This document shows, piece after piece, positions 1-36,900 of a stretch of DNA of 45,121 nucleotides. A program made the translations under genes and the position numbers. Positions within the stretch are counted from its first letter, which is position 1, and each line of letters opens with the position of its first letter. The notes beneath the pieces are model-generated. The model did not search any database. It saw nothing but the letters and a program-made list of their open reading frames with translations, and was not told where the DNA came from. The DNA is from Seison nebaliae. Taxonomy: Eukaryota. The stretch covers positions 1-45,121 of the forward strand of contig JALJEE010000040.1 of NCBI GenBank assembly GCA_023231475.1. Reading direction: 5' to 3'.

Positions 1-3000
1 TTGTCCTGGAGCAGGTGTAGTTTTCATTAATGTGAAAGTTCCTACGTCTGAAAATGTTTAGTTATTTGGAAATATATTTGCAATTTTAAACTTGCAGTTG
101 GTTGACTAAATTGCATTGTAGGTTGAGCGAAACTGGTTGATTCAGAAGCACTCGGCAATAAACTAAATTCCATTGTTGGATGAACCTCTTGTTGGATAAT
201 TGGTTGAATTATCGATTCTACTCCACCACACTTACTTTTTGAGGTTTAAAAAAGAAAGTTATAGAAAGGTAAGAAATTGAAAACCATTTAGGACAAAGAC
301 GATCGTTCTCGCATTTACAATCTGAAATACAGGAATCTGAAATTTCGTCAAATTTTGTTCCTTCTGGACAATAACAACCCTCCAAACATTCTATCAAAAA
401 GTAGCGTCGAAATATTTTAAAAAACCAAACCTGATTTGTCGCAGGAATTGCTACAGTTTTTGTTTCCGCATGTGTAATATGAAAATCCTTTAGAACAATG
501 AAAAGGACAAAAATCTTTTGATCTGTAGTCAATAATCATATTAAATTTTTTTCGACATACATTGAACAATTCTTCCATCACATCACACATTGCAGAACAA
601 GATGTTGCTTCGCTACATTGACAAGATTCTTTCACACATATTTCATAGTAATATAATTGTTCTTCCTTTGATAACTTATTTAAACAACTTCTAAACGTTG
701 AAGAACTAGACTGTTTTTGTAGCAGTTTGCAACGATCTAGTGCCCAATTCTTACGCAGGGTATTATCTATACAACAAGAAGTTACATCCATTCGTTTCAT
801 TCTTTCTATATTGTTACATTTTCCTCGTTGATATTGTCTTATATAATCTATTGTCGAGGAAACTATCTTCCCGTTTTTAGATCTAGTTCAATAAATTTCA
901 ATTACAGTCCACTTTAAAAAAATTTTAATACTTCACATCATTTTCCGATTTGCCATCATTATCTCCACATATGCCATTTATATTCCGTAAGGTCTCGTTG
1001 ATGTCAATTGAAATTCTCATTCCTATCAGAAAAGATGAAATAACGATACTTTAGAAATAATACCATAGTTCCAAGTTAGTTTAAATTGTTCAGTTATCAC
1101 CATTAACGAAATGGTATTTTGTTCGAAAACTATATTGTTGATAGACTTTTTTCCTAATTTTGGTAACTTATATTCTCTCCCGTTTAATATTGGATCTTTA
1201 CCATTTAACAATCGAATGTTATCTCCATTATAATGAATTATTATGTTTTTTGTGCAAGTTTTCCCCTGAGTACCACAAGCAACATTCTCAAAAGATATAC
1301 GAAAAGGATTTTCTTTTTCGAACGATTCAATTAATGTAAATTGACATTCAGATATATGTTCCGTGATCTGTTGAGTTGGTATACTTTCAATATTAAGAGA
1401 ACGACCATCAAAAGTTCTGAAATGAGCATCTCCAAATATTTCACAGCTTGATGCACAATTTTCTGTTTTATTGCATTTCCATTGACCTTTCTGACATGTG
1501 CTAATATTGAAGAGTGTAATATTATTATAAAATAAATTTAATCAACTTACCATTTCGAACATTTTTGTTCGACAATTTCGTTTTTTTCGTAAATTTTATT
1601 GATATATTGACAAGGACATTCTTCAATTTCAATACAATTTCCATCCTAATTAATTAAAATTATCAGGTTACATCAAAACGGAAGGAAAGTTAACATATTT
1701 TAAAACGAAATTATCGGGACAACCACAGCCACTTTCGTATATTCCACAATCTGTCCAAATATCTTTATTTTCACAAGTTTTTTCGATGCAATTCGATGAA
1801 TCGAAGGCAATTCGATCTTTCTTCCATATCTTGATTCAAATAGAAGAGATCATTCAAACGTTTATGAAGTCAAAGAACTTGATTTTTTGGACATTCTCTC
1901 TTTCCTCCCTCTAGCGACCTTTTCTTAAAGGATGATTGAAATTTAATTTTGTATCCCGAATTTTCCACACTAATACCGTTGTCGTTATCACATTCTGGAT
2001 TTTCACAAATCCAATTTCCACTTTCAATACATTTACTAATTTTGTTATTAGAATTATTCATTAGTAGTTTATAGTTGTTATTACCACAATTGAACTAACC
2101 ATTTACCACAATTTGACAAGTGAAACTCTTGAGATATTTCGTAATATCTACTGCTTACATAACAAGGACATTCTTTGAAATGGAGACATCGTTTCTGTGA
2201 TTCATCATACAACATTCGAGAAGGACATGCACAACCGGACAAACAGATATCTTGTGCATCATCTGTGCATTTATAATCCTTTTCATTGGGACGACATGTT
2301 TTTAATCCACAATTGTCAATACAATGTTGCCATTCCATATTTCCAGTGCATTTATGATAATTCGATTGATTGTTAAATTTCTGAAAATATTCCGATTTTT
2401 GGACAAGATCATTTGGAATATAAATTCCAGAATGTTCACACATAGTCAAATAATAAATAATTAAAGATTTTAATTTATCTTCATTGTTTTGGTTTTGTAT
2501 ACATGCATGTATCATTTCATCTGGTTCAATTAATTCGTTACATTCTCTAAAAAGATGAGAAGTGAACATTTTCTGACATTTAGTCGATCTTATTGAAGAC
2601 TCAAATCCGTCTTCCTCTTCCATCTCATAATCTCCATTTTCGATTTCTTTTAAAAAATCGATTTCGTTATCATCATCCAACGAACGATGAATACGGTTTA
2701 GTTTAGATGTCTTTTGGTAACTTTGTATAAAATTGTCAGTGTTCAATTCAACTATTCCGCTCGATGTCAACATTTCGTCATTTGATTTATCGTTCAATGT
2801 TCCACATAAACCGAAAACGTTATCAAAATATAATGTGGTATTCAAATAAACATGAATTAATCCAAATTGACTAGATGTTATTCTCCATGTTTCTCCATCA
2901 ATTGACAGGAAATCTGTGGTTATCCATTCAATTTTTATCAAATTATTTTGGTAAGGAAACTCTTCAATAATTGCATGATTGAGATCTGCTCTCACCTCAT

Positions 3001-5144
3001 ATGGATAAGAATGTTTGAATTCCACAGAATAACGGATATAATCGTTCATATATAAATTTAGTCGATGAAAATCGTCAGTTAAAATTAAGGATATTTGAAG
3101 ATATTCCAAAAAATGTACTGTGGGTTTCAATTCGACTAATACGAATTCCTCTTGACTTGCAAATTGTTCATTCATATAAAAATATCCGTCAAATGTTCGA
3201 ATATTATTCGTTGGTAAAATGGAACAATGTCGTTTACAAGAATTCTCTGTACAATTCCAAGTTCCTTTCTGACAAATACTTTTTAAAGTTATATAAGATT
3301 GAGTTTTTTATAAGTTATATTATTAGAATTGCGATGAATTAATAAAATTATACAAACCACCGATTACAATCGATATCGATTTCTTCTTTGTTCAAATAAG
3401 TCTCTCTTCCATATTCACATCCACATTCTCTCATTTTCTCACATTTACCATTATCCATTCGTTTATATCCATCTTTACATTGACATCCAGAAACACAATT
3501 CTCATGGCATGAAATTATATCATTCTTTTTACAAGGATCTTCACGACAATTGGTAGCACATTCCACAAATATTTCATTTCTACCACAATCGATTTCTATT
3601 ATTCAACGTAAGAATCAAAGTGAAACGATATTCAATACTAACGACATAATTTCAATTGATTTCTCCAGTCAACATGAATGTTATTTTGGAAGCACATTCT
3701 TGAAAGAACATATCCAACAGAACATATTGTCTCCTGAAAATTCTCGTTACAAGAATCTTCATTACATAAATTGATAAATCTTTCGAACTATAAGGAATTT
3801 TTCTAAATTGTTCAGTTTTGAGACTAGATAAAAAAAACTTCGATTATTTTGTCAGTGGAAAGTTTCGAATAACATTCTCTAAATATGCTATGTTTATCCA
3901 AATATTTTTTACATTTCTTTTCAAATTTGAACGTACAATCATTTTTCCAATAACTAATCTGTTTCTTAACAAAATAATAATTATACCCGTTAAATTTTTT
4001 AAGAGATTGAATTCTAACTTCATCCATGTGAAAATGTTTCATGGAATATTTTTCCATTTGATCTAAATTATCATCTGAAAATTAAATTGAAGTTTTATCG
4101 AATAAAATTTAATATTTTCAATGAACCATTCTCAGCACCATTGTAATTGCCGCATAATCCTTTAATTTTTCCTTTATGATTGTCAGAAATATAAAGAATA
4201 TACAATCCGTGCTTATTCCATTGAAAAGTAAATTCATTGGCAAATATAATTTGTGTCCAATATTCGTTCATTCTTTCGATTGTAATACCTTTTTAATGAA
4301 TTTATTTAAACATAATTATTAGTTTTCTAATTTTAACCATCTTTATAATACGTTCCGTTTATGATTGTCCTTCCATCGATCGATATTTCATTCATCATAT
4401 TTAAACGAACATGAACATGATTTAGTAGAAGATTGACAGTCTTCAAAAAATGAATGAATTAATATAAAATGGTTTTCAAGAAAATGAAGATTTATGTGAA
4501 ACTTTTAAAACTGAAATATTTGTTTGTATATCTTTCAAATTAATATCGATGCTCCATGACCCGATCATATTCACTGATGCCAATTGATATTTTATTCTGT
4601 ATAGAAAATTTCCAAATGATAAAATTCTGGAAAAATATGAAAAATTCAACAATTTTTTTATTTGAAATATTTTCCCATCGAATGTCCGAATATTTCTTGT
4701 ACCAAACAGTAGACAATGTTCTGCTGCATCAGCAGTTGACCAATGGTCTAAATCATTTGATTTCTCATTTTTCTTTATGTTGCATCGACTACCTGTCCAT
4801 TGGGGACAACAAACATCTTTCTCTTGAACGAATGGACATGAATCGTTACTGACGCGCATTCTCATCAACAATTTTCTTAATTGTTTCAAATTTTTTCTAG
4901 ATCTTCTCTGAAATTCAGTACCTTGTAAATTGCGTATGTCTAATTTCCATGTGAATTCTTCATCATCCTTATATTGGTAATCAGACGGACATGGTTTGTG
5001 AGTTCGATTTGTAATCTGTTTACACCAATGTCCATCTTCTGAATTAGCATTGTGACTGTATGTCGACGTAACATTGACCAACACCAGGAAGAGAAAGACA
5101 ACAATCGATACCATTTGAACAATAGACATATCGACCAAATTCAT
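1..5144 (-). CDS. SCO-spondin-like / von Willebrand factor-mucin family secreted glycoprotein (signal peptide, EMI-like domain, D1-D2-D'-D3 assemblies of VWD-C8-TIL); runs off the window at the 3' end, about 1438 codons seen
   Basis: Reconstructed exons (minus strand): 5144-4651, 4596-4503, 4440-4338, 4288-4127, 4074-3839, 3787-3643, 3595-3358, 3278-2100, 2035-1879, 1829-1695, 1645-1551, 1500-1064, 1022-932, 882-431, 390-285, 234-92, 47-<1; all introns are GT-AG and phase-consistent. The N-terminus is a hydrophobic signal. GHWC...WKLDI...CPF...CCPQWTGSRC resembles the SCO-spondin N-terminal EMI region as I recall it. Three VWD starts (RTFDG x3) pair with GLCGNYNG, GLCGTLND and GICGDNDG. TIL repeats include CVSGCQC, CLSGCACP and CLEGCYCPEG, and FENVACGTQGKTCTK is typical of D3. 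The true start could be M1, M6 or M11. Confidence 0.88.
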
Positions 5145-5207
5145 CGATCCATATGATTTCTGTTTGTCATCTAATTTATTTGAAAATTTAAATTAGTTTT
5201 TCTTAAA

Positions 5208-5612
5208 TTAATATAAACTGGTTTTGTTGATTAACGCATCCTTATTTGTTGGTTTTAACTCAACATTCGAGTTATCATCATCATCGTTCTTCAAAGACAT
5301 CAAGAATGATTTCAATTTTGAATTTTCTTTTTCAGTCTTTGAACACAATTTTGAATGACCGGATGGATCATTATCATCGATATCTCCAATGTTAGCATCA
5401 GTCTGCACATTATTCACAATGTTCATTAATGAATCCTTCTCTTTGGGATTCTCTACTTTGTTGTCACTTGTACATTGTCCGTTAATAGTCAAATGTTTTA
5501 TATCGGGAATGTCCACCGCATTACTTCGTCTTAATGCTTTTCGACGTAATAATAGCGATGATTGGATGTCATCTAAATTGGCAAGAATAAAAGTTTTACC
5601 TTTTCTCCCCAT
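5208..5612 (-). CDS. Hypothetical 134-aa hydrophilic protein (orphan)
   Basis: Single ATG-initiated 405-nt ORF with protein-like composition (basic N-terminus RRKALRRSNA, acidic/polar C-terminus) in very AT-rich DNA; AATAAA at 5180-5175 downstream. No recognised domain. Confidence 0.55.
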   Translation of the reverse strand: MGRKGKTFILANLDDIQSSLLLRRKALRRSNAVDIPDIKHLTINGQCTSDNKVENPKEKDSLMNIVNNVQTDANIGDIDDNDPSGHSKLCSKTEKENSKLKSFLMSLKNDDDDNSNVELKPTNKDALINKTSLY

Positions 5613-6331
5613 AAATCATAGAAGACGATTCAAATATTTTTCGAAAATTCTAAAAGATCTTTTCCAAAATTTTATTAAATCTGTTCAACGAAAATTCCTT
5701 GTGTTTATATGCGTCCAAATTTTTATGAGTCACTCAATGGCATATTGGATTTCACTAACTATACGCCCACATCATATTATTAAAACGTAATATAAAACCG
5801 TCGTAAAATAGTTTTTAAGTGTTTGGTACCTTTAAAGATTTCATGGAAATATTTTACGATTTTCGTTTGTTTTAATTTATTAGTTACCAAAGAAGATGTT
5901 CATGTTATACAATACGAATCTCGGAATAAAACTTTCAATTGAAATGCTGAACTAAATAAATTTATTTATATGATCTCTATTATATTTTTAACGACACTTA
6001 CATAAGAGGTTGGAACAATAATTTGAAAAAAAACGAAGGTTCTGAAATAAAGTGAGAAATAGAATTAAGTAAGAAATTTATATCCATATAGGATTCAGAG
6101 AAATGAAATTATTTAAAATATCAGAAGCGTTTGGATGAGTAGATGTTTTATTTATGCATATAAAAGAGGATTAAATTAAGAACTCCCTTGTCAGATTTAA
6201 CCGTGAAGAACTTTATATTCTTTTAAGTTTAATATACACGAATAACATGCAATATAGCATCGTATTATAAGAATGTAAGGAATTTCTATCTGAGGGATGA
6301 CTATTTTTATTTTATTTAAAATTTTTTATAA

Positions 6332-6705
6332 TCAGTTCTGGTTTTTCTTTCCTTTTAATATTTCTTCAGGTTCATTGAAATTGCCTAGATAATTCGAATC
6401 CTTCATCATGAAAATTGTATAAGAAACTGGAAATGAGAAACAAATATTAACAGGATTGGAATTATTAAAAAATAAGTGGAAAAAAAGGAACATATGAGAA
6501 TAATCGAAACTGATAATCCAATTCCCAGACGTCGATTCTTCTTCAGAGAATTTTGCACTTGTTCACCTCTATTCCTATTGATGTTCGACGCTTTCTTCAT
6601 AAACATTTTCTCCGTTTTCGACAAGGAATTCATATCGATATTATCAGATAAATTCCTTCTTTGAGAAAAATTAGGAGACAATCGTCTCAATAATGAATTC
6701 ATCAT
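6332..6705 (-). CDS. COA3: Cytochrome c oxidase assembly factor 3 (COA3/CCDC56), 102 aa
   Basis: Exons 6705-6492 and 6426-6332 with a 65-nt GTTCCT...CAG intron. The spliced product reads ...KKNRRLGIGLSVSIILIFSYTIFMMKDSNYLGNFNEPEEILKGKKNQN*, fitting the COA3 pattern (basic-N-x-x-x-G, one TM helix, Y-T/S-I-F, then L-x-x-F-x-E-P). Confidence 0.8.
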
Positions 6706-7142
6706 TGAAAACGAATGATATTTTCTTTCCTTTTACAATATTATTATAAAAAACTTTATAAAAATTATTTCACAGACAACGCTCCGAATTGAACTAAAAA
6801 TAAATTTGAAAATTTTTCTTTGAAATTTTTTCAAAATTGTATTCACTTATATTCCGTATTTTTTTTATTTGTTTATCTCGGAAACTGAAGATTCTTGATA
6901 TAGCTCGTTAAGTTCGTAACGTGGAAACTTATTAATTTAATTAAGATAATATATAAGTTGATCTGTTAGAAATAGAGGAAAATTGAAATAAGTTTATTTC
7001 AGAATTTATTTTTAACAAAAATATTTCTTTCTTTCAAGCTGCATTGTATTGATATAAAAGTTCAATAACGTTTAGCGCGAAAAATCTTAAATGAAATTCT
7101 AATATTTATAATTATTGCTTTATAATCGTTTTTTCGTTCCAG

Positions 7143-8502
7143 ATGAATAGATTTAATAAGATTACTTTTAATTTACCCAAATTATTGCCATGTCAACATT
7201 CGTATTCGACATCAGCAACAACGTTCAAGAATCAAAGAATAAATGTTGAGAATTCGGTCGTTGAGATGGATGGTGATGAGATGACAAGAATTATTTGGGA
7301 GAAGATTAAAGAACAATTGATCTTTCCTTATTTAAAGATGGATATCAAATATTATGATCTTGGACTACCACATCGAGATAATACGAATGATCAAGTTACA
7401 GTTGATTGTGCTGATGCGATTAAGAAGTATAATGTTGGAATAAAATGTGCGACGATTACACCTGACGAAGCAAGAGTAGAAGAGTTCAATCTCAAATCGA
7501 TGTGGCCATCACCAAACGGAACGATTAGAAACATTCTTAATGGAACTGTATTTCGTGAACCAATTTTATGTAAAACTGTACCTCGTATTGTGTCAGGTTG
7601 GACGAAACCGATTATTATCGGTCGTCATGCTCATGGCGATCAATATAAAGCAACAGATTTTGTAACGAATCATGCAGGAAAATTGAAGCTGGTTTTCGAA
7701 CCATCAGACCCTAAACAACCCACGAAATCGATTCCAGTATTCAACTTTACTGAATGTGGCGGAGTTGGCTTAGCCATGTACAATACCGATGAGAGTATTG
7801 AAGGTTTCGCTCGCAGTTGTATGGAATATTCATTACTGAAGAAAATACCGTTGTATATGAGTACGAAAAATACAATCTTGAAAAAATATGATGGTCGATT
7901 TAAAGACATTTTCCAACATATCTATGACAAGTTTTTCTTTTGAATACTTTTCTAATTCTTTTCTGAAATTTAGAGAATATCGTGAAAAATATAACGAGAA
8001 GAAGATTTGGTATGAACATCGTTTGATTGATGATATGGTTGCACAGACGTTAAAATCAAGTGGAGATTTCGTTTGGGCTTGCAAGAATTACGATGGAGAC
8101 GTACAAAGTGATTTGGTGGCTCAAGGATACGGATCGTTGGGACTGATGACTTCAGTCTTAGTATGTCCTGATGGAAAAACTATCGAATCAGAAGCAGCTC
8201 ATGGAACGGTAACTAGACATTATCGAGAGCATCAGAAAGGAAATGAAACTAGCACCAACCCAATAGCTTCCATTTACGCATGGACAAGAGGTCTTCTTCA
8301 TCGAGCAACTTTGGATGGAAATGAACAATTGACACATTTCGCAGAATGTTTGGAAAAATCTTGCGTACAAACAGTTGATTCAGGAATCATGACAAAAGAT
8401 TTGGCACTCTGTATTCATGGAAAACAATTAGAGAGGAAACATTATGTTACTACAACCGATTATATTACTGCTGTTGAGAAACGGTTAAAGGAAATGTTAT
8501 AA
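7143..8502 (+). CDS. IDH2: NADP-dependent isocitrate dehydrogenase, mitochondrial, 438 aa
   Basis: Exons 7143-7930 and 7974-8502 with a 43-nt GTTTTT...TAG phase-2 intron. Motifs: [81 protein letters not shown]. The basic, Ser/Thr-rich N-terminal extension fits a mitochondrial transit peptide. Confidence 0.96.
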
Positions 8503-9094
8503 TCAAATTACCATCAGAACGAACATGGCAAATAAGAAAAATGATATTAAATATTAGTTTCAGATAATCAATTTAAAATTCTAAATAATTATCCAAAAAT
8601 TTAACAACCATTTCACAAACAGATTGACAATCAATCCTCAATTCTGAATTGCACTTAATTTAATTTAAATTCTCCCCAAACCTTTCTAGTATTAAACCAT
8701 AATATTTTGAATATTGATGACTAATAAATTTGCAGATGATTCATTCTTCGAAGAATTTGTTTATTCCCTTTTTCACATTTTGCACGAGGCATAACCAAAC
8801 ATATAATCTTGAAACTGAGGAAGTGCATGAAAAATAAACTTTAGGAAAAAGAATGATTAATTGTCGTTATCATGGTAATAATGAATCATTTGGGAATAGT
8901 TCATATTTCTCTATTTTATACATTAATTTTTATAATACTAACAGTAAAATGGATTTGTTCAATAATTTTAACTATATAAATTTTAGGCTGGATAATTCTC
9001 TTGAATTTTATCAGATAATTTAACATAAATATGGAGAAGTAATTGACGTGAGTAAATTTGCAAAAGAACGAGAGAATAAACATTTAAAAAGAGA

Positions 9095-10391
9095 ATGGCC
9101 ATTATAAATTTGAAAGAACGTTATCGTACGACTAATAACTGGATTACTAAAACATCGTCAGATGGTGAAGGAAATGATGGAACTGATTCGGAGATTATTA
9201 CGACAGAACTTTATTCGAAAGGAAAAGTTTCGATCGATATTGAACAGAATCCAATTCCGAAAAGTCTTCATTTTCCTTCAATTGAAATTGCATCAATTCT
9301 CTAAAAGATAGAAAAATCAATGCATTCATGTCAAAAGAATGGAATCAGTTGTTCGATAAAGTCAATCTGATATTGGAGATGCAATATCAATTCCAAAGCG
9401 ATCTTCGAACATTATCATCGAATTATAATGAATTATTTCAACAAACATCTTCTGGTAATTTAAAAGAAACCGAAAAAGTTTCATTTTTCCATCATTTTCT
9501 TTTTCATTATACCATTCATGTTTATAGAATATTAGTATTAGTAATGGGAAATTATTGAAAACGTTGAGATCATTAAAAAATCAATTGTCGGATATTCATG
9601 ACGAGAAACAAAAAGTTGAACAAATTCCTGATGGTCTTCAAATTTCTTCAATTTATTCCAATAAATTTCCATAAAATTTTAGATGATGCTGATAAAGCAT
9701 TGATTAGAGCTTATGCGATGCAATATACAGGATTGTCGGATATGATGGAGGAATTGGTAGAACAATTCTATGTGATGCAAGCGAAACATAAGACGAAGAA
9801 AGACGAATTTCTTGTACGAACATACAAAATTAACAATCCAACTGTCTCTTATGAAGATTCTGTCGATTATGTACAGAAAGCGATAGCTGAAGCTATTGAT
9901 CAGGATGGTTCACCTCAATTCATTTGTTATTTATTATGAAAATTAATTTTTATTAGGTAATGAATCAGCTGCAATTACGAGAATCATTCCACAAGCTCGA
10001 GTACTCACTGCGATAAATGATGAAAGGAGAAAGTTGACAGATGTGCAGGAACGATATTCAAATTTTCAAAAGATCGAACAAGGATTGGTTGAAGTGAGAG
10101 ATTTATTCTTTCAAGTTTGCTTTCATTCTTCTTCAAAAGATGAATTCATCTGATTTCTGATAGACAGAAATGATGGTGAAGGAACAAGGAGATATATTGA
10201 CGAGTATATCGGGAACGGTGTTATCTGCTGGCGATTATGTCGATAAAGCGAAAGACGAATTCAAAGAAGCAGTCAAATATCAGAAATCTGCTCGACGAAA
10301 AAAAGTGATTTGCTCTATCATCGCCGTTGTTGTTATAGCAATAATTATTGGAATTATTATCGCTGTAGAAGTTGGAAAGAAGAAAAAATGA
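9095..10391 (+). CDS. Syntaxin-1-family (Qa) t-SNARE, divergent, 351 aa
   Basis: Exons 9095-9263, 9308-9477, 9528-9633, 9683-9907, 9957-10114, 10164-10391 (introns 44, 50, 49, 49, 49 nt). The SNARE motif QERYSNFQKIEQGLVEVRDLFFQTEMMVKEQGDIL...DYVDKAKDEFKEAVKYQKSARRKK has the zero-layer Gln and is followed by a C-terminal TM anchor. Confidence 0.9.
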
Positions 10392-13300
10392 GAAATGAGA
10401 ATCGAGTTGAAATTATCATTCGAATGATTCCACATTAATCCATCCGATTATCTGATTATTTCGGAGGGGGGAAGAAATGTGTTGTTGAAATGAAATGAAA
10501 TGATGTTGAAAAAAGATAATCATCTTTGTAAAAAAATTCATGAACAACAAAAACAAATTCGCCTTAAACTTCCCTAATGGTTTCCGATTTTGTTCTATTC
10601 CTTGCATTATTACTATTGACACATTTTCATTCTACAATCCAATAAATTATCTATTTTTCCATAATGTTCATTGACAGAAAGTTATGGTGAATGAATAGAT
10701 GATAATTAATTTAATCTAATTCGTTTTACTTCAACTGTTGTCCAATCTTTTTTCGAGTATGGACAAAACACTCGCTTTTTTCATCATACGGAAATTTGTT
10801 ATTTATTGATGATGTAGGAGAATAGTAATGAGGAAAGAATAATTTTCTTTTCTGGCTGTTAATCAATAACATTTCTTTTTCTCATTTCTATCGTGTGAAC
10901 GAATGTAGAAACGATTTGAGTGATATCGTATAATTATGACGGGACGGAAGATAGGCAATGCACAAGTTGTATATGTTGACACCTGATCAATCAACTGACA
11001 ATTATCAAATTAGTAATATGATAGAATTTAATACAGTGTTAAGTAGTGTAGAAAAGGAAACCAGGGAAAACATTCTTGTGAAGAATGAACATCACAAATT
11101 ATATTTTTATGAATATATATCGTATGATAATCATGACGATGATATGCAGTCGTTGGAGCTGTTATGTCTCATCTCATGGTTGTATTGGAACTTTATGTCA
11201 TGATAATAATGTTGATGTTAAGGAAGATAAACGATTAGAAGTCGTTTCTAATAAAAAAAGAAGGATGATGATATAGTTTTATTATAAGAATGAAGAGTAA
11301 TTAGTAATAGAATAATCAATGATGTCGCAATAGTTGTTATAAGTTGATGAAAATAAATGGAAATTTTCGTTTTCAACCTAATGGTAATAAAGGAATGAAA
11401 GGAAGTGGAGGAGGAAGATGTAAAATAATTTGAAAATTAATCGTTATATCCTCCAAAGTTCTCTTATCAATCATTATGAGTGTTCTCAACTGAGAACTTA
11501 TCGTTAATGTTGCTACCATTGTTTTGTTGATAGTAATGATCATCACATTCAACGAAATTTTTAGAGGATGTTCTTTAATATTTTACGGAATATCTTTTAG
11601 TAATATCTCCATTACATAGATTGAATGGATTTAATATTATCATTCTACTTTCTATCATTCTTATTATTCTTCTCATCAGAATATAAAAGGATGATTAGTA
11701 TCATCATCATCATCATCTTTCTTACTATTCTTTCCAATCTCATATTCTTATGGACCCATGTAAAATATTTTCCTGGTTCTCATTATTCTTTAAATGAAGT
11801 ACTCCCATAGTATTGCATACCAAACGTGTATAGTTCTATGTTGAGAACTGAGAAGAAAAAGGAAAGTTTAGAAGAAGAATTCACTCATGTAATAATAATG
11901 GATACTATAAATATATGTAAAATGTCTACTGCTGATATGTACATATGCACACCAATTTGGAGTAATCATGGATGGAAAAAAATATATATATGGAAGAAAT
12001 ATTTATAAAAGAACAATAAGAAAAACAGAGTGAAATTGATTATAATAATTATGATATTACTTGTGATGATGATAGTATAAACGATTTTCCTTCCAAAATT
12101 TTAAAGTAGACAACTGAAAGAAAAGAATGAGGAGTGAAGAATATTCAAAGAGCATCATATAGAAACAACAAGATAAAATGTACATATATCCTAATATTTA
12201 TATAACATTAGCTTATTACTTATGAGAAAGAAAGAGTTGTTTATAAAATGATTTAGCTTCCTTTGATGCCATTATACTCATCTTCCCATTTTTCTTTTTT
12301 ATTTCTCATTTTACCATTCACATTTTGTCCGATATCATTGAAAAAGATTTAACAATATAAGCATTCACCAAAAGCATTCCCATCCAATGCTACAAGTCGA
12401 CAGATTCGTCTGTATTTATATTGATGTTTGGAGTAGTTGCTGGTTCCTTTTTACTCCGAGCTGATACATTCGCAACTACTCATACGAATTCACTATCAAT
12501 ACATTCACCACTACAAGACTGATAATCATCCAACAAATTCTTTTGCATATGTATCCTTAAATTACTGTTTGTATTTGATTAATTTCAATCGACATTGTCG
12601 ATTCGACATCGTATAATCAACTGGATGATGACTGAATTATATTCTCGTTCATCAATTACATTCTTCGCTTTCAAATATCCTCGTCCGAATTGGAAGTGAT
12701 ATCACAACTAACGATCTTTCATTGATATATCACATAATTAAACTTCGTTGCTACATGAGTGAGCCATGTTCAAATAAAAAATTGGTCATTCCCATTTCAT
12801 TCAGATTTTATTTTTTCATAACAATGCGAATTATCGTCTTTTCGAGCAATGTTTATCATTCTTACAAAGAAAATTTATTAGTTAAATTTCTTTTATTTTT
12901 TTCCATAAATTATGAAGAAAAATCTTATGAGATTCATAAGATTGAACTTCCAGATGATGAAAATAGTTAATAAGTTCCATCGATTTAAGATTATTTTGAA
13001 TTTAGTAATCAAATCAAAAATTAACTTAAATTGCCAATTAGTTAAATCCATACTGGTTCATTAATAAAATAGTGAAATGAATAAATAATGCAAAAAAGTT
13101 GCAAGAAGGATAATATATAAAAATTACCAATACTTTTAATGGCAATTCAATTTGAATGACTCCTTAACATTTTTCAAATAAAATATGGAATAAAATAGAT
13201 CTATGAAAAATTCCAAATTTCGTTCATCCGTTTTCCGTGAGAAGATCACATTCCGTTGATTTAATAGAAGAGAAATCATATTAAATCGTAACACATTCCT

Positions 13301-18049: not shown

Positions 18050-19139
18050 ATGAAACGTCGAAAAATCAAACTGATGGATTGGCTTTATTATTTGGATACA
18101 ATAATTGAACGATTTTCTTTTACAACTTTCTTCCTAGCCATATTTCTCAATTTCCAGGGAATTCTTATGATAAATTCGAACGACCCAAATTTAAGGAAGA
18201 CAGGACCAAAACGAGGCTTTACCCCAAATATTCATCCTTTTTATAATTTGACGGTTTTAAGGAATCTTAACAAATATCGTTATATGTTAAACGAATCGAA
18301 TGAAGAATATGAGAAGCGGAAATATTTTGTGAATAATTTGAAGACTTTAGAAGAATCGAGTACAGCCAAAGTTCGTGAAATGATAACAAACGAACAATTT
18401 AAGCAATGTGCTACGTACTATTTCATACATTGTTACCAATGTGATTCACGCATCGAGCCGTTATGTCGCGATCCATTCAATGCTAACTTTACCGTTCAAC
18501 CATATTCGCTTCCTAACGGAACTCTCTATTTACCTGTGACGAATGATAATCCTGATGACATACCAATAACACCATCGACAACATCAAAAGCATATGAAGA
18601 TCGGAAAAATGGACGACGTAAATCTGGTGTGAATAAAAGAAGTTAGAACTTTTTCTTCTTCCATTATCATTCCATATTTCCATTCAGATGTCAACAATCC
18701 AAACTTATTGGAAATGATGAAAGCCGAAGTTGGCCAAATTATTCAAACAACGTATTCCGCTTTGCCAACTTATCTTTTATTACCTTCGATGAAGAAAAGG
18801 GAGAAAGACGAATCTGAACATCAAATTCATAAAAGAGAAACGCAAAAAATTGATACGATGAGAAGATTAGAGAATATTCGATTGTGCAAAGCGACTTGGT
18901 GCGTCAAATGGACAAGATATGATAAAGAATTGGACGAAGAATATATTGTTCGAGATTGCGCAACTGCGTACGATATTAAAATAAAGAAGCATAGCCGTTG
19001 CTTCTACCACAAGAGATATCATAATCAGTTATTCTGTCTATGTGATACGGATTATTGCAATATGGGAAGGAAAATATTATTGTCCAAACATTTCATAGTC
19101 ATTCTCACTTTTCTTCATTTCTTACTGCAATTATCTTAA
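18050..19139 (+). CDS. Quiver/Sleepless-like Ly6 three-finger protein, predicted GPI-anchored, 347 aa
   Basis: Exons 18050-18641 and 18688-19139 with a 46-nt GTTAGA...CAG intron. Ten-Cys pattern: IHCYQCDS...LCRDPF ... LCKATWCVKW...IVRDC...RC...FCLCDTDYCN. It also has an N-terminal hydrophobic segment and a hydrophobic C-terminal tail. Confidence 0.85.
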
Positions 19140-27442: not shown

Positions 27443-28638
27443 ATGATACATGGTTCTCATTCAATTCATTTAGTGAATTATCTTGATGAGCCACTTGGAA
27501 CGACATTAACAATATTTTTGATAATTGAATCAATTGTCGGTTTAATAGGTTGCAATCATTTCCTTTTCTTCTTTTTACTATTATTTCTAGGTAATGGTTT
27601 GGTTATTGGTGCGGTGTTCATTTCAAAAGATCTCAGAAATACTGGAATTGGAGCAATAGTTAATATCGCAATATGTGATTCAATTATTTGTATAATTGTT
27701 AATCCATCAATTATTTTTGGTTAGTTCATTTTGTTGATTTATTTATGGAAATATTATTCAATCTTTAATAAGGTGTCTATATGCCGGCTACTTACTTTTC
27801 AAGGCATGAAATCTTTTGCGACATTTTGGGGAGCATATGTGTGACCGGATGCATCTGCAATGTTCTAAATGTCGTTGTTATCTGCATAGCAAGGTTAGAA
27901 ATTTGTCATTCTTAATATTCCTTCTATCATTATCCTGATTTTCTTTTATTTTGATTACCAAACAGATATGCCCATTTAATGAATAAGAAAATGTTTAACA
28001 AGTTCTTCAATAGTCACGTCAAAGAAATTCTATTAAGCGCTACTACTTGGCTCATTGCATTCGTATGCGATGTTCCTAATTTTTTACAGTGGGGCAAACA
28101 CATATTCGATCATAAAACGCGAATGTGTCATTGGGATCGAACAGGTAAGAGGGAGATATATGCTATCATATTCTCTTGCATATCTTGCTTCTTACCATTA
28201 TGTGTCCTATTTATATTTTATTCGTTAATGTTCCTTCACATAAGAAAATCGAAACTTCGCATTTTCAACAATGCGTCCGAAATGCATCTCAGTGAACGTA
28301 GTCATGATACAAGTACGCTGAATGTTCGTCATGTTAATAAACGGAAACAATTATTCAAGAAGTCCTTACGCATGGCTAAAACACTGTTTTTAATAGTAAT
28401 GGTTTTTGTGATATGCTGGTTGCCATATGGAATTATTACTGTTTTGGATAGGAAAGATTTATTTCCGGCCTGGGTTCATATTTTCGCAATACAGACAGCT
28501 CATTTTAGTATCATACTCAATCCCTTGATATATGGTCTTGCTAACCGAAATTTTCGACGGGCGTATATTCAGCTATTAAGTTTCAACAAATTTTCGTATG
28601 TACGACAAAAGATATTATTAACATGTCCGACCGGTTAG
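27443..28638 (+). CDS. Rhodopsin-family (class A) GPCR, melatonin-receptor-like, paralog 1, about 342 aa
   Basis: Exons 27443-27548, 27591-27719, 27773-27893, 27966-28638 (introns 42, 53, 72 nt). Motifs: TM1 GN, TM2 NIAICD, TM3 IARY, ECL2 FDHKTRMCHW, TM6 FVICWLPY, TM7 LNPLIYGLANRNFRRAY. The extreme C-terminus is uncertain because of a possible extra small intron from GTATGT at 28596. Confidence 0.88.
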
Positions 28639-29438
28639 CAGAATTTTTGTATGAATGCTGCGAAGCCAAGCTGAATGAAATAAATATTTTCCTCTTGGTA
28701 CAAAAGTTGCAAATGATCGAAAACAATGAATCAGAAATATTTTATGTACATTCCAATTTATCTATATTTTTGTTAAATTTGATCGTTACTCACCGAGGAA
28801 ATTTGTATATATTTATTTAAAATAAATGATATTCTCTTATTTAATCCGGTATTTGACTTACTAAAATTGAAAGGTAATATCAAATAAATTTCTGTTTGAC
28901 TTAATTCTATAAAGTGTTTAGTAGAAATATAGAATTTATATTACTAATACTGCATTTACACTACACTACTGGCTCTCCTTCGTACTATCGCTCTAATTTA
29001 CAAAAATTATTATATTCTTCAGATGAGAGAAGAATAATGAATATTTGAATTGATTATTGGTCTTTATTCTTCAGCAAATTCTATTCGTCAATTCAATGCC
29101 CTCCCATATTCAAACGTTTTCTTATCTACTAATTATACAATAGATTGCAAGTCATCAAAATAAAGAAATTAATAGAAGATGATACTAATATATAATAATC
29201 TTTTTCGAAAATTATACCTCCAATCTATTTTTCATCTAAAATATCAGAGATGATTCGCATCATCCTTCCAACATTTAAATATAATTTGTCCGAATACATG
29301 TTCTATTCTATCTCTCCGAAAATTCTTTGTCATTAACAATCCTTTAGATATATTTTGTGCAACCCAAAAAACCATTTACCTAAATTTGTACCAATTCTAA
29401 ATTACCGCTATTTAGTTTTACAGATTTTCTTATTGAGA

Positions 29439-30507
29439 ATGTCGAAAGAAGAATTTATTCCTAGTCATTCATCTTATATCTTGACCGTTTATTTGGTCAT
29501 CGCTTCAATTCTCGGTTTCTTTGGGAATTTATTGATCATTGGCGCTATCATCGTCTCTAAAGAACTCAAACGATCGGGCAATGGCAGTGTTATCAATATC
29601 GCAATAACGGATATTGTGGTGGCAACAATCGTTAATCCGATTACGATTCTTGGTTAGAAATTTCAGTTTCCATTTAAACAAACTTTTCCTAAAGGCATTT
29701 ATATGCCGACTAGTTTCTTTTATAAACATAAATGGATTTGTGAAGTAGCAGGTTGTATTTGTGTAACCGGATGTATCTGCAACATTTTCAATATTGTATT
29801 CATATGTATCACTCGGTTCATTTTCATTAATTACTTCAACTAATTAATTTTTATTCAACAGATATATTCACATGGCTCGAGGGAAATTATATCGTAAATT
29901 GTTTTCACCCGCTTACAAGGAATTAATCATAAGTATAATTATCTGGATTTTAGCATTCTTCTGCGATCTACCCAATTTCCTTGGAGTCGGTGGTCACATT
30001 TTTGATCATAAAACTCGAATGTGCCATTGGGATCGATTGAGTAAAGATGGAAACGTTTACGCTATATTATTCGCATGCATAGCTTGCTTCTTACCAATGT
30101 TAACTCTTTCAATTTTCTATTTACTTATTTTCGCTCATGTTCGTGAATCGAAGAGAAAGGTTGAATGCAAAGATCCGAATTTAAAGAAGAATTCTGGCAG
30201 TTTAAAGAAAAATAAATCGATGAAATCTTCAATACGATTAGCTAAAACATTATTTCTCATTGTTCTCGTATTCATCATTTGCTGGTTGCCTTATGGTATG
30301 GTGACAATCATTGATCGGTTTGACGAATGGCCACATTGGGTACATATATGTTCCATACAATTGGCTCATGCCGGTGTCATTCTCAATTTCTTCATTTATG
30401 GATTAGCCAACAGAAATTTTCGCATAGCCTATTGTCGTATATTGGGCTTGGGTAAATATTTCCCAGAAATCAATTTGGAAACGACAATGGCGTCCACCGC
30501 AAAATAA
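29439..30507 (+). CDS. Rhodopsin-family (class A) GPCR, melatonin-receptor-like, paralog 2, 326 aa
   Basis: Exons 29439-29652, 29695-29815, 29862-30507 (introns 42, 46 nt). Motifs: TM1 GN, NIAITD, ITRY, HIFDHKTRMCHWDR (identical to paralog 1), FIICWLPY, LNFFIYGLANRNFR. It shares a 121-nt TM3 exon with paralog 1. Confidence 0.9.
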
Positions 30508-30703
30508 TTTTTACACTTCTCTTTTAAAACGAATTTCAACACTAATTTAATTGAGGTGTATTTAATTAACAATTTTCTTTTAATTTTTTCTTAATAAAAC
30601 CGACGGTGGTGAAATTGACAAATAGAATTTATAAATTTTATAAACAAGTTCCAATTGTAGGTAATAATAAGATAATATGATCGAAAAGTGGGGATAAATG
30701 TGT

Positions 30704-30846
30704 GGGGGGGGGGACAATTTGAAAAATAGAATTCAGCATTTAAAAATTTCAAAGGAAATTTCTCTAATGAAATCATGTACAATGTATAAGATTGTAAAAT
30801 TGGTGAAGAGAGATAAAAGTGAGAGAGAGATAGAGATAGAGAGAGA
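30704..30846. repeat. G homopolymer and imperfect (GA)n microsatellite between the convergent GPCR2 and MRCK 3' ends
   Basis: G10 run at about 30704-30713; gagagagagatagagatagagagaga at about 30821-30846. Confidence 0.75.
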
Positions 30847-30969
30847 TTAGTATATAGGGAATGTTTTAGAGTTTGTTCGTTAAACATTCGGAAAACTTTA
30901 AATATCAACTAATCAACTAATCGGGTAATGATATGTCATACAAATAAATTGTGTAATTTAAGATAAATA

Positions 30970-33900
30970 TTATGACGCTGATGATGAAGTGGTGGATGAT
31001 GGGAGATAAATTTGTGTATCATTGTATAATTCATAGGAAGGACGTATTGTATCTGTGTTGGAATCAGAGAACTGATTATTCTTCATCGCCAGAGAATTGA
31101 TCTGTTCGATATAATAGTTTGAGGAAGTTGTCGATTGCTTTCTAATCTCATTCTGTTTCATCGTACTAATATTATTGTCATTTGTGTTGATGTGATTATT
31201 ATTAGAAGTAAATCGAAGTTGATTATTTGGTTCTATTACGAATGAAGAAGCATTATTTAATTTCATTTCAGTTTCCATCAAATCGATTTTAGATGTATTG
31301 ATTGAAGAAGAAGAGGAATCAAGAGAAGAATCATTCTCTTTTGTTGCCGTTGTAGTTTTAGAAGGAGAAGAGGAAGATACAGACGAAGAAGTGGAAGCAC
31401 GGTTAATGAATGAATGACCCTTTGACTGATTATTCTCAAGACGACAGCAAGAATAATCGGGTAAGATTAACGTGTAATTGTCGGTGGTAATTTGGAAGTT
31501 GAGAGGCGATAAAGATTTCTTATCTACTCTTGATCTATCAATCTTATTCTCAATTGGACTACATGTCCTTCGATTATATAACTGACTACGAGATAAATGA
31601 TCAGCCGGTTTCTGATGAGAATAAAAGAAGGATAGATTATTTAATTGATCGAACGGATTCTTTGAAACAATTGGCGATTGTTGTAAAGCTAACATCGATT
31701 TACTATAAGCTGAATTGTCTTGATATTTCGAAATATTAACATTATTATTATTATTATTGTTATGATTTAAAATAGATAATCGATTCTTACGAATGTCTTT
31801 ATTATTCGTCTTCTTATTATTATTATTCATATTTATATTATTATTATTATTATTATTATTACTGTTCTTTCTGTTGTTCTTGTTGTTGTTACGCTCGTTA
31901 TTGTTATTATTGTTATTGTTTAAAGAGAATAGAGATGTTGATGATTGTGTTGGTTCAACAATATTCTCTTGAATTGAATCAATTTGATACGACATTGGAC
32001 GGAAAATATTAGATGAGGAATCTTTTGTAGAATTAGTAATTAATTCATTCGTCTTCCGTCGTTCATTCTTCTTGTGTGATAGTTTTATGATTTTCTTATT
32101 GGAACTCTCTCCATTTTTTTCATTCTTATTCATTTCACTCGTGGAGACTAATTCATGCAAATGCTCATTACTCCAATGTGTCAAATGAGAGAAGTCGAGT
32201 GGACGCGATATCAATTTGGATTGACTTTTCGAAAATTGTCCTTTCATCACATTCTTATTAACATTCACCGATTGTGTATTCGAATAAATCGAATTTAATA
32301 TTAAATTATTCTTTTTTCCTCCACTAAACAACTGAGAGAATTTTCGATGATTCGATTCATTATTCTCATTATTCGTTTCGTTACTTGTCGTTGACGTCAG
32401 ATAGAAAGCATTCATCCCATCAATATGTGTTGGTTGTTTACCAACTGTCTTATTATTCCGTTGTTCTGTCAACGAGTCAAGCGATGATAATGATTCTTTT
32501 ATTTCGTTCATATTCTGATTATTCACATTCTGCAACAAAGACGATGACGATGATTTCGCATCAATCGTTGAAATTGCCATTTCACAAACCGATAATTTTG
32601 ATGTTGTTGTTGTCATTATTGTGGTATTAGTAGTATTGACAGAAGTATAATAACTTGAAAATTTTCCCGTTCTATTTCCAACATATTTCTGTAAATAACT
32701 TTTAGCCACTTGAAATTTAGATGATGTGCAATTTGATGAAACAGTTGTCGATTGTAAAATTGGAGCTGGAATAAGAGTTAGCAAGTCATCTGATTGTCTC
32801 ACATTAAACAACGAAGATTCGGAATTGTTCTTCAGTTTATTCTCTTTCATCATTTGATTATCATTGATCATTTGCAGGAATTTATTCTGATCTATCGGTG
32901 CGATCTCGGACATGAATGGATTGAGTTTTCTATTTATTTCTTCTGGTGATGAGTTTGTTGTTTGTCTAAAGAAAAAGAAAAAATTAAATTTCCATAATAT
33001 ATTTTTATCATTTCCATTGAAACTGAATGGAATTAGTAGGCGATCAATCGATTAAATATTAAAGAAAGCGGAAATCATAAAAATCGAAGAATTTTTTTTG
33101 GAAGTAATCGATCAAAGCAAAAAACAAACAAAAAAAATGAAGCAAGAAGAACACGAAAAGAAGATGTTCACCTTTATCCAGACAATTTATATCTGAAATT
33201 GAATAAAGATGTTTCGTTTTTCCTGTCATTCGATAAATGACAAAATTCCTTTTTCCCATAATAAGGAAAAGTGAAATAGAAAAGAAACAATTATTAGAAT
33301 TCCCATTAAATTTCCAAACAGTTTTCTTGAAAATTCAAGAAAAAATAATTCCAAAAACAAAAAAAAATTTTCGGAAAAATTTTGATAATAAAGAAATTTC
33401 TAATTTGTTTTTTATGGAGAAGAACACAATAAATATATATGGATATTTATATATTTCTTTTTAGATAATCAAACAATTTTAAATAATTTCTACAGATAAA
33501 TTTGAAAATTACCCAAAAGGAGAAGGAAATAGATGAATCAAATTGTCGATAATAAAATTAATTACATTGATGATGTTTCCGTCGCAAGATTGGTGGTGGT
33601 GAACGTAAATTGGCTGAAATTATCAGATTATTATTATTATTCTCATTCTTATTTAATTTTCTTTGAAATAAATTTTTGGGTTTCTCTTTATTCCATTGTC
33701 CATTTTTCTTCAACGACTTTTCATCAGTTGTCGTTGATTTTTCTAGAATTGATTTCGAATGTTTCATGTTGAGTTTCTTCGTTTTAGTTTCCATTGATAG
33801 AATATAATCTAATGCCGAATTGGATATCGATTCCGTTAACATAAATATATCATCATTCTGATTCAAATCATCTGCCAATGATGGAGTACTGAGAGATGTG

Positions 33901-36900
33901 ACATTACTCGTTTGTGGTTCATGTCCAAGGATCGTAACAGATTTGGAACTAATTTTGGGTGAATCAGTAACATCAGAATCGTTTTTCTTTAGAAAATTCT
34001 CGTCAGTATATTTGCGATTTTGAAACCGTTTCTTATTATTTGATGGCTTCGACGATTTCATATTGTTTGAAAAACATTCATCATTCTCGGTAACTTTGAA
34101 TGAATGAGATTTGAGAAATGCTCTCGTGGAACTTAATTGAGTTGAAGCAGCAACTTCCGGATCTTCCGATGATGACGATGATAATTGAGTTGGTCGATGA
34201 AATTTCTCATTCCATAAAATTCTCGCTTTCAATTTATTCTTTTTATCATATAATGTCGTTCCACAATTGTCGATGATATTTTTCACTTTATTTTCATTTT
34301 TCATTAAATTACTTAATGTGAGAATTGTTGAAGAATCTTTCATTCTTTTCCGAATATTCTCCGCTGATGACTCTCGACAATTCTTTGACGATTTCTGTCT
34401 CAATGACATAAATGAGAATTTTGGTTTATCAGGCAATTTCGTTAAAGTTGCGCTTTTCATCTGATTCGAATTAGCAAATGTATCCGAATTCGTTTTGATG
34501 ACAGCTAATCTGGAAGATAACTGTGAACTATATTCTTCAATTTGACGTTCGAACGGTAAATAATCATCCTCGTCTTTGACAAATCTCTCATTATTAGATT
34601 TGTGATCGTCTGATTTTTGATCAGGATTCTGAGACGAAAATGAGAAATCATCCGTCTGAAATTGATTGATCGATGTGATTTCCATTGAATCGGAAACAAT
34701 TTCATTTTTATCTTCCTGATGATGTAAGGTATGAACATCTTTCAACTTTCTAGAATTTTCATTGTGAACAATATTGGTGGTATTATTATCATAATCACTT
34801 GGTATGGTTAGAGAGTAGACGGGTTCATTCGTCCAATCGGAATCATTAAACGTTTCAGAAGAAGTTGATTGTACTTTTTCAAGTTTAGTTAATTTTTTAT
34901 GATCACTTGAATTCGATGATATATGATGAAATTAAAGAAGAATTATTTCAAATATCTTTCTTTCTCTCAAATAATCTACCGATAATTATCGATATTCTAT
35001 AACAATATCAATTTCTCCAGGAATTAAATTTCCTTCAATAAATTTTTTCATGATAATCACATCATAATCCTTAATTACATAACTTCACACTTCATCCATC
35101 ACAAATATATATATATATTATATTAGAAAGATTATGTTTCTCTGTTTATTTTTACCATATGAATAATTTGTTACGAAAGGAGATAAAGTGAAAAGTTCAT
35201 ATTCATCCTCATCTGGAAGAACGTGCCATTCCTCATCATCATGAAGGATGATGGGCGTCATAATTAATAATTCATAAGAATAAGTTACAATAATAAAAAG
35301 ATTGGAGAGAAAAGAGGATGATAATGATGATGATGATGAGACGAGACGAGACGGATTATGATATTATTTAGATTAAAGTTTATAAAATTGGACGAGAATA
35401 TAGATAGAAAGTAAAGAAAGAAGCAAATAATGACAGTTATCGGAACACAACCTTTGGATTTTTTGCATTTTCTCATTCGATTCTTTCGTTGACCGATATT
35501 CGGAGTTCTTCGATGTGAGAGGAATATTGGCGATATGAGACACATTCGTCAAATTGTCATTGACATTCGACAACGTCGAACTTCCTGTTGAAGCGACATG
35601 TGTCAAATGAGTGAAGTTTGTTGGAGCACTAATCAATGCTTTACGATTACTAAAAAGAGAAATTATTGAGGAAAACAATTTGAAAAAATTAACTTTCTCC
35701 GACGTAATTCTGCTTCTTGTTCATCACTTAATATGGCTGATGGTTTTCCACCGTTTTTTGTCATGAAAGAAAATCCTTTTTTCCCTATCTTCATTGACTT
35801 CATTCGATGATCTGTTTCCATAAGACGATTAATAAAATATAATAGAGAATAAAATTTAACCATATTTTTTTGAAAAATTCGTTGTCAATAATTTTTTATC
35901 GAGATAATCATGAGCAGTGATTACTATTAGAATGAATGATGGAAATATATAAAGGAAATATTTAAAGGTTAAACGTTCGAATTCTATTGAATTGTCTAAA
36001 TTAAATTGTGATTCTGACGTGGCAGTTAAGGTTGGGGAAATGTATAATAATTTTGTACTTTTATCGAAGTCTTCAAGTACTGCAGTATAAATGCTGGATC
36101 CGTTGAGACAATTTAACTGAAGGAAAGAAGGAAATGAATATAAAATGAGAGAATAAATGGAAACTTTTTGTAAATGAACAGTTTGTGTCCAATCACCTTC
36201 AGAGAGATTATAAACTAGTGTCAATTTCGAGAAATGATTAAAGATGAGTAGACAATTTGAATTTTTAATGTAGTTGATGTTAGTCGAGTTATGGATAGTG
36301 AAGGGCCAAGATAAATGATAATTTCTTGAGAAATTGCCATTAGTATCGAGGAATAAGGCGAAGTGGTTTGTTATGAGAATCAGTTCCTTGTCAGAGAGTC
36401 GATGAATAGAAAGGATACGTACAGTCTCTTTCCACGACGTATCAATTGATTGAACTTGATTATTATGTTGAAATGGATTTGTTGAATAGATATGGAGATT
36501 GAATAAGATTTGACAATGATCTTTGTTACATTCGATTCGATGAAGGAAATCGAATGGTCGAAATCGATAGACAATTCCTTTTTCTGTTAACAGAATCAAT
36601 TCATTACAATTGATTTGAATATGGTCGATATTGAATGGAAGATGAAGTTCATTGATACGTCGATATCTCGGCTTATTTTGTATCAATTCATAAATGGTGC
36701 ATTCACTTCGACGGAAATAAATGACAATCAATAAAGTTTGCTCATTATTTCTCATAAGTAGAAGTTGAATAGGAATTCGATTGTCAATGATTTTGAAATA
36801 ATCAATTTTCTGTTGCTGATCTGAAGATGACTTGATCAACGGATATCGATTGCCATCACCCTCATCAATAGCAACATCATTTTTCGATATTAGTTCATTT

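Follow-up and report, generated by a model that had tools for sequence, protein, structure and literature searches.

Seison nebaliae is a minute relative of the rotifers found living on crustaceans, and its intron starts appear to follow an unusual rule. On contig JALJEE010000040.1 (assembly GCA_023231475.1), analysed over positions 1 to 45,121 and referred to here as the window (GC content approx. 30%), 30 of 35 predicted introns begin with GTT, and the splicing machinery of this animal probably has a modified way of recognising where introns begin. A purine at the third intron base (+3) is part of the animal donor consensus; in the window this base is T in 30 introns, A in three, C in two and G in none. 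All splice counts below refer to these 35 predicted introns in eight genes on one 45-kb contig, read at the level of DNA only.

Thirty-four of the introns were placed by six-frame reading: 17 in a VWF/mucin-like gene, five in a syntaxin-like gene, four in an MRCK kinase gene, three and two in a pair of rhodopsin-family G-protein-coupled receptor (GPCR) genes, and one each in genes for isocitrate dehydrogenase (IDH), a quiver-like protein and a small product encoded near 6.4 kb. The placement was not blind, as 15 donor coordinates were known beforehand from a first-pass annotation of the same DNA. That annotation had counted 34 introns in eight genes, with 29 GTT, two GTC and three GTA donors, and had quoted 15 donors individually; the tally was reproduced, and all 15 quoted donors lie where it put them, with the hexamers it gave. 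The 35th intron (donor 35451, GTT) was adopted from the public MRCK gene model. Spliced reading frames are open across the reconstructed genes, and GT...AG ends (35/35) are present by construction, with frames matched by stored proteins or homologues.

The hand-placed list was fixed before stored proteins were mapped. P0391 (VWF-like), P0121 (MRCK) and P0243 (syntaxin-like) map to the window letter for letter with 29 introns, whose third base is T in 23 cases, A in three, C in two and G in one. In these three genes, 25 of 26 hand-placed introns are common to the stored models, the single mismatch being the first VWF intron, which starts with GTT in both versions. The stored models add donors at 35451 (GTT), 5218 (GTT) and 10305 (GTG). 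We excluded the last, the sixth intron of P0243, because it would delete the predicted syntaxin membrane anchor; its inclusion gives 30 T in 36 introns. Positions 1-19500 are covered by DNA contigs from four sequencing runs, representing no more than two samples, with only three differing letters, all in a repeat before position 150, so the donors in this region are not assembly errors and that source was rejected. These contigs span the introns and contain no splice joints, and two runs guessed to be RNA gave no match at 80% likeness; neither result bears on expression.

For each intron, all nearby GT-AG pairs that keep the frame were listed and scored blind to donor sequence, using profile hidden Markov models (HMMs) of 50 IDH, 67 syntaxin-like and 20 MRCK homologues, or the paralogue in the case of the GPCRs. 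The chosen donor was best by 10 to 54 bits for IDH, all five GPCR introns, syntaxin donor 10115 and MRCK donor 36164, and for several further introns only GTY options (Y, pyrimidine) keep the frame. A protein search with IDH gave a best match of 74%, with neither the window's own protein nor a close relative among the matches. No homologue of the VWF-like protein was returned by search, and its donors were judged by the expected cysteine spacing and by the internal repeats of the gene: GT-purine alternatives at 3357, 1694, 430, 284 and 3642 delete conserved cysteines. The assertion that donor 3357 must be GTT was borne out, as a GTG 3 nucleotides (nt) upstream would remove the second cysteine of the CNRC-IC motif. 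Setting aside six ambiguous introns (donors 4650, 4018, 91, 18642, 35693 and 35451) leaves an anchored set of 29, while a worst case counts all six as GT-purine.

At +3, selection favours T beyond its local background and disfavours purines. The base composition of intron interiors is 48.7% T, 31.3% A, 14.7% C and 5.2% G, with 52% T at +7 to +16. The count of 30/35 has a probability of approximately 1e-5 at a T background of 0.50 and 1e-3 at 0.60. For the anchored set (24/29), the value is 1.6e-4 at 0.487, 6.7e-4 at 0.524 and 0.008 at 0.60. Purines occur at +3 in three of 35 introns against 36.5% in intron interiors (p 2e-4). Outside the VWF-like gene, the other seven genes have 16 T and two C (18/18 GTY), and the bias is present on both strands. 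T is found in 30/35 at +3 but in only 74/175 at +4 to +8 (p 2e-6), so U-richness alone offers no explanation. As purines are avoided, and T peaks at +3 and not behind it, something appears to read U at this position.

These figures bear directly on the suggestion that +3 is not specially read at all, the donors having decayed to GT followed by intron background and the excess being a small-sample, local or placement bias. There are only 35 introns, 17 of them in one gene; of 30 GT words within introns, 18 are followed by T; and the worst-case count (24/35) lies only modestly above background (p 0.014 to 0.039), although far from the control described below (p 2e-6). We nevertheless consider this improbable, given the anchored set, the depletion of purines and the uniformity of the seven other genes, and because only 27 of 64 GT words left unused close to real donors have T as the next base. 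Had the donors simply decayed to background, that too would be out of the ordinary beside the control.

The control was drawn from 78 metagenome MRCK-family loci with an alignment, of which 26 were inspected and 17 used; 42 junctions were placed and 41 kept, from 15 loci. It shows the usual animal donor pattern, with A 20, G 10, T 6 and C 5 at +3; three of the 41 are GC donors. A purine is thus present at +3 in 30/41 control introns against 3/35 in Seison, and the T excess has a Fisher p of 3e-10 for all introns. The earlier description of +3 as inverted relative to other animals therefore stands (T in 30/35 here, 6/41 in the control). No control locus could be assigned to Syndermata, and the Seison MRCK forms a very long branch. 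One control locus (L004) has a single GTAAGT intron and 30% GC, and groups with two proteins only.

The remainder of the intron signal is weak but not absent. Introns are T-rich, G-poor and short, with lengths of 40-79 nt in 34/35 (mode 49) and 28/35 within 40-53 nt. The first-pass annotation had called +4 to +6 nearly unconstrained. This is so for +4 and +6, which are at background (+4 is T in 15/35 and A in 12/35, p 0.72 for A, with U not preferred over A), but not for +5, where G is found in 11/35 against 5.2% in the interior (p 1e-6). G at +5 is associated with A at +4 (p 0.002; eight such sites have +4 A and three have +4 T), and GTTAG is present in seven of 35 introns where 0.5 are expected. 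GTTAG is thus a real, in-register subclass, in which part of the ancestral GURAG persists as GUUAG. On the exon side, G at -1 is enriched (17/35, p 6e-6), at a lower level than in the control (35/41; +5 G is 32/41 there); position -2 is A or T in 34/35 (p 6e-5), and the commonest exon ends are AA (13) and TG (12), with AG in only four. It is scarcely credible, given this register, that U1 binds one base out of step on a GTT-N-AG site. The donors do start with GTT as such sites would, but +5 A with +6 G is found in 0/35, +6 is G in just 2/35, an exonic G directly precedes 14 of 30 GTT donors, and consensus matches fall from 4.3 to 3.4 when the register is moved. Shifted-register donors were rejected on these grounds.

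Acceptors are loose: TAG 16, AAG 10, CAG 9 and GAG 0 of 35, with no enrichment of YAG at -3 above background (p 0.38, 35 introns) and no polypyrimidine tract above background (pyrimidines 64% at -15 to -5, 63% in the interior). The +3 inversion of the earlier account was upheld, although that account had passed over both these acceptors and the +5 G/GTTAG class. Five of six branch-point patterns occur at chance, while CTGA is present in 5/34 against 1.0 expected (p 0.002 before correction). Minor, U12-type introns carry GTATCC donors and a CCTTRAC branch box; each was found in 0/35 and this class was rejected. We infer that the introns are U2-type and handled by the major spliceosome. AAG acceptors are in excess over the control (10/35 versus 1/41, p 0.002), and this excess in the absence of a pyrimidine tract, together with the reading of the -3 pyrimidine by yeast Prp8 Q1594, the alpha-finger glutamine (PMC12262433), makes the corresponding Prp8 residue and U2AF of interest in Seison.

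The explanation that we favour, at somewhat less than an even chance, is that the base of U1 small nuclear RNA (snRNA) opposite +3 has changed from U to A, so that it would pair with GUU instead of GUA. Variant U1 or U6 snRNAs, and altered U1-C, Luc7, TIA1 or SNRNP27-type factors, had been put forward as possible causes by the first-pass annotation. Position +3 faces the second U of the U1 hexamer ACUUAC and, later, G44 of U6. A U1 carrying ACUAAC in place of ACUUAC would pair fully with GUUAGU, and such a single U-to-A change would explain why U is favoured over C at +3 and why +4 A and +5 G are kept. C makes up only two of 32 +3 pyrimidines against 23% expected (p 0.012), and a preference for U specifically, rather than for pyrimidines in general, is more in keeping with an A-U pair than with pairing to G; +4 A and +5 G are positions that a U1 altered at one base could still read. 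The one-base variant raises the number of in-register Watson-Crick pairs from 5.3 to 6.1 per site and brings the mean duplex energy from -2.8 to -3.7 kcal/mol, while control introns pair worse with it; the gain is a consequence of the +3 counts and does not test the model independently. As both intron ends carry weak information, length and base composition would probably help to define introns. Loss of U6 methylation by METTL16 may have loosened +4, although the U1 model does not require it. A search of the window with Rfam detected no snRNA gene: nothing reached the gathering score, and a single microRNA match was weak (E 0.13).

Several observations weigh against this interpretation, or against the counts beneath it. 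Pairing with the variant U1 stays weak, at -3.7 kcal/mol compared with -7.1 for control introns and standard U1, and the 35 donors comprise 23 different hexamers. Most lineages with atypical donors (Saccharomycotina, Giardia, Trichomonas, Thecamonas and Micromonas) have retained a standard U1 according to bioRxiv 10.1101/2022.06.08.495308, although their donors are altered at +4. Because the control introns exceed those of Seison in length, come from DNA richer in GC and are in part orthologous among themselves, the comparison includes no control for short AT-rich introns. The stored gene models may be ab initio predictions that use the same frame logic as our hand placement. Competing GTG donors outscore 35693 by up to 9 bits on the HMM, and a purine donor or intron retention is possible at 18642, 4018, 4650, 91 and 35451.

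A competing route to U at +3 is pairing with U6 G44 after loss of METTL16, which we regard as unlikely. Of 25 syndermatan genomes in a BUSCO table (PMC12256650), only that of Seison has METTL16 scored 'Missing'. A review (PMC11732430), in its available text, describes +3, usually A or G, as contacting U6 G44 weakly, with N6-methyladenosine (m6A) at position 43 capping that helix; a G44-U wobble at this step is our own suggestion. Enrichment of A at +4 has gone, as would be expected without m6A from the accessible text of PMC10581693 and PMC11347140. However, the same two sources and the review, in part, link METTL16 loss to +4 U and a stronger exonic AG, whereas in the window +4 T is at background and exonic AG is rare. 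The +5 G sites favour +4 A over +4 T, and G44 should favour C over U at +3, where C is under-used. BUSCO misses are also common (36.5% missing in one Seison assembly), making a false absence of METTL16 plausible; among the splicing-related rows in the part of the table examined (PMC12256650), Seison is scored Complete in 20 and Missing for U5-40K, LSm2, LSm1, USB1 and ZMAT5.

Alternatively, the choice could be guided by protein: snRNAs would be standard, altered U1-C, Luc7 or TIA1-type proteins would bind a U-rich intron start, and length would fix the site. The tight size range and the T content at +7 to +16 are in keeping with this, LUC7 paralogues shift donor preference in humans, and many odd-donor lineages retain a standard U1 (bioRxiv 10.1101/2022.06.08.495308, in part). 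Set against these is the T excess, far sharper at +3 than behind it, and we consider protein guidance quite unlikely. The available portion of the BUSCO table (PMC12256650) gave no rows matching 'LUC7' or 'U1 small'.

Precedent for a change of U1 comes from Entamoeba, whose donors depart from GUAAGU at two sites and match a U1 of ACAAAC (bioRxiv 10.1101/2022.06.08.495308, available sections); such a U1 change can therefore evolve. Seison resembles Entamoeba, with its GUUUGU(U) donors, in having U at +3 in most introns, GT-AG ends kept and an AT-rich, reduced genome in a host-associated organism. Entamoeba introns, however, are sparse, with a single near-invariant donor and motifs resembling branch points, whereas the animal Seison has degenerate donors, retains +4 A and +5 G in a subclass and has no clear branch motif. 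A fixed hexamer of the Entamoeba type was rejected, with GTTTGT found once in 35 introns. In comparison with GURAG donors, Seison shares the GT-AG ends and the enrichment of -1 G and +5 G, but has U in place of the purine at +3 (GUUAG) and rarely an exonic AG, so most Seison sites fit neither donor class. Species that lack METTL16 or SNRNP27K show a shift to +4 U, possibly tied to loss of U6 m6A (PMC10581693, in part); Seison has METTL16 scored missing, yet its +4 is at background and the change is at +3. Taken as a whole, a genome-wide recoding of the 5' splice site to GUU(AG), with U1 changed opposite +3 and the U6 m6A writer lost, beside relatives that keep METTL16, is a possibility that we hold as doubtful.

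Table 1. Introns of the window, with the donor hexamer and the basis for each placement. P0391 and P0243, stored proteins; alternatives, check of frame-keeping donors.
Feature	Positions	Strand	Basis or remark
VWF/mucin-like gene (VWD, C8, TIL domains)	1..5144	-	17 introns, runs off window; public model starts at 5612; Pfam, P0391 maps exactly
VWF, GTTGAA	4597..4650	-	ambiguous, in frame; public model 4627-4707, also GTT
VWF, GTTTCA, AAG acceptor	4441..4502	-	P0391, alternatives
VWF, GTTAAA, AAG acceptor	4289..4337	-	P0391, alternatives
VWF, GTTCAT	4075..4126	-	P0391, alternatives
VWF, GTTAGA	3965..4018	-	ambiguous, retention keeps frame
VWF, GTTTTT	3788..3838	-	P0391, alternatives
VWF, GTTAGT	3596..3642	-	P0391, alternatives
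VWF, GTTTGT	3279..3357	-	required for CNRC-IC cysteine
VWF, GTTAGT	2036..2099	-	keeps CGKC-KC
VWF, GTTCTT	1830..1878	-	P0391, alternatives
VWF, GTTAAC	1646..1694	-	P0391, alternatives
VWF, GTAAGT (canonical donor)	1501..1550	-	P0391, alternatives
VWF, GTATTA	1023..1063	-	P0391, alternatives
VWF, GTATTA	883..931	-	P0391, alternatives
VWF, GTTTGG	391..430	-	P0391, alternatives
VWF, GTTTTC	235..284	-	P0391, alternatives
VWF, GTTTAA	48..91	-	ambiguous, low-complexity region
Small gene (~6331-6705), GTTCCT	6427..6491	-	all frame-compatible donors GTY
IDH (7143-8502), GTTTTT	7931..7973	+	54 bits above only alternative, 50-homologue HMM
Syntaxin-like (9095-10391), GTCTTC	9264..9307	+	P0243, alternatives
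Syntaxin-like, GTTTCA	9478..9527	+	only frame-compatible pair
Syntaxin-like, GTCTTC	9634..9682	+	P0243, alternatives
Syntaxin-like, GTTCAC	9908..9956	+	alternative donor also GTT, scores higher on HMM
Syntaxin-like, GTTTGC	10115..10163	+	25 bits above GTG alternative; P0243
Quiver/Ly6-like (18050-19139), GTTAGA	18642..18687	+	ambiguous: GTA and GTG, 24 and 15 nt upstream, keep frame
GPCR 1 (27443-28638), GTTGCA	27549..27590	+	best versus paralogue by 10 bits
GPCR 1, GTTAGT	27720..27772	+	best by 27 bits
GPCR 1, GTTAGA	27894..27965	+	best by 44 bits
GPCR 2 (29439-30507), GTTAGA	29653..29694	+	best by 15 bits
GPCR 2, GTTCAT	29816..29861	+	best by 33 bits
MRCK (33558-41039), GTTTCC	36117..36164	-	best by 11 bits; retention keeps frame
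MRCK, GTTTAA	35924..35974	-	only GT-AG pair; retention keeps frame
MRCK, GTTAAA	35812..35860	-	only frame-compatible donor
MRCK, GTTAAT	35650..35693	-	ambiguous, GTG alternatives up to 9 bits higher on HMM
MRCK, GTTGTG, 546 nt	34906..35451	-	public MRCK model, not hand-placed; ambiguous

The genes that carry these introns (table 1) have further features of their own. The window begins in a high-copy repeat (1-180), whose contig depth reaches the thousands in three runs and which encodes a Ser/Thr/Pro-rich, mucin-like stretch. In the VWF-like gene, the public model (4597-4707, minus strand) splices out TFDG, a motif of the first VWD domain, and the in-frame intron 4597-4650, which keeps it, looks better. 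The public model also links an upstream open reading frame (ORF) to this gene through a 48-nt GTT intron (5171-5612, minus strand), so that a likely signal peptide becomes internal; the join may be a fusion of two genes. In one run (X3), diverged contigs within 1-19500, at approximately 4-5x, align in exons and break over several introns (for example 978-1102, 2042-2157 and 4291-4373), and a diverged contig is 43 letters shorter at the IDH intron. The small gene may encode a COA3-like protein; Pfam returned no family. The GTG-donor intron of P0243 (10305-10368, plus strand), which removes the C-terminal hydrophobic anchor, is either a mis-prediction or a soluble isoform.

The tandem GPCR paralogues (27443-30507, plus strand) share two intron positions, and GPCR 1 has a further intron, in frame and 42 nt long, within its first membrane helix. 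In MRCK, the first 4.8 kb (36117-41039, minus strand) are intronless, where the homologous loci of other animals carry many introns in the kinase domain; this 5' part reflects heavy intron loss, on the same contig as the intron-rich VWF gene. Within the 546-nt MRCK intron (34906-35451, minus strand), there are runs of 60-70 codons free of stops, which could be exons absent from the model. Two ORFs without a Pfam match fall outside the counts or near the window end: a low-complexity ORF of 693 residues (30970-33334, minus strand; outside the counts), with a CRIB-like stretch seen by eye, which a possible upstream exon at approximately 33150-33260 would, judged by frame, reach by no donors other than GTT, and an ORF of 194 residues (44410-44994, plus strand).

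A full-text literature search, with most subscription journals outside its coverage, found neither a donor consensus for Seison or any rotifer nor an animal in which most donors are GTT. The accessible parts of rotifer gene papers (PMC3464624, PMC13161344, PMC10125929, PMC11347168, PMC10599564) give no donor consensus, the first mentioning a 'GGT motif' in bdelloid tubulin introns. In its available text, the Seison genome paper mentions introns only with regard to gene compactness and snRNA not at all. Genome and RNA-seq data exist for Seison (PMC8351084), and relatives have been sequenced. Judged from 35 predicted introns on one contig, the GTT donor of this animal is a real variant of the major-intron donor and one that has apparently not been described. 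A multi-intron animal with U at +3 would be a natural experiment on whether U1, U6 or a protein is the partner that fixes this position, and Seison would likewise test how thousands of sites and an snRNA change together. Annotation software trained on other animals will put Seison donors in the wrong place. If the genome-wide recoding is true, Seison carries a rewritten donor code inside Metazoa.

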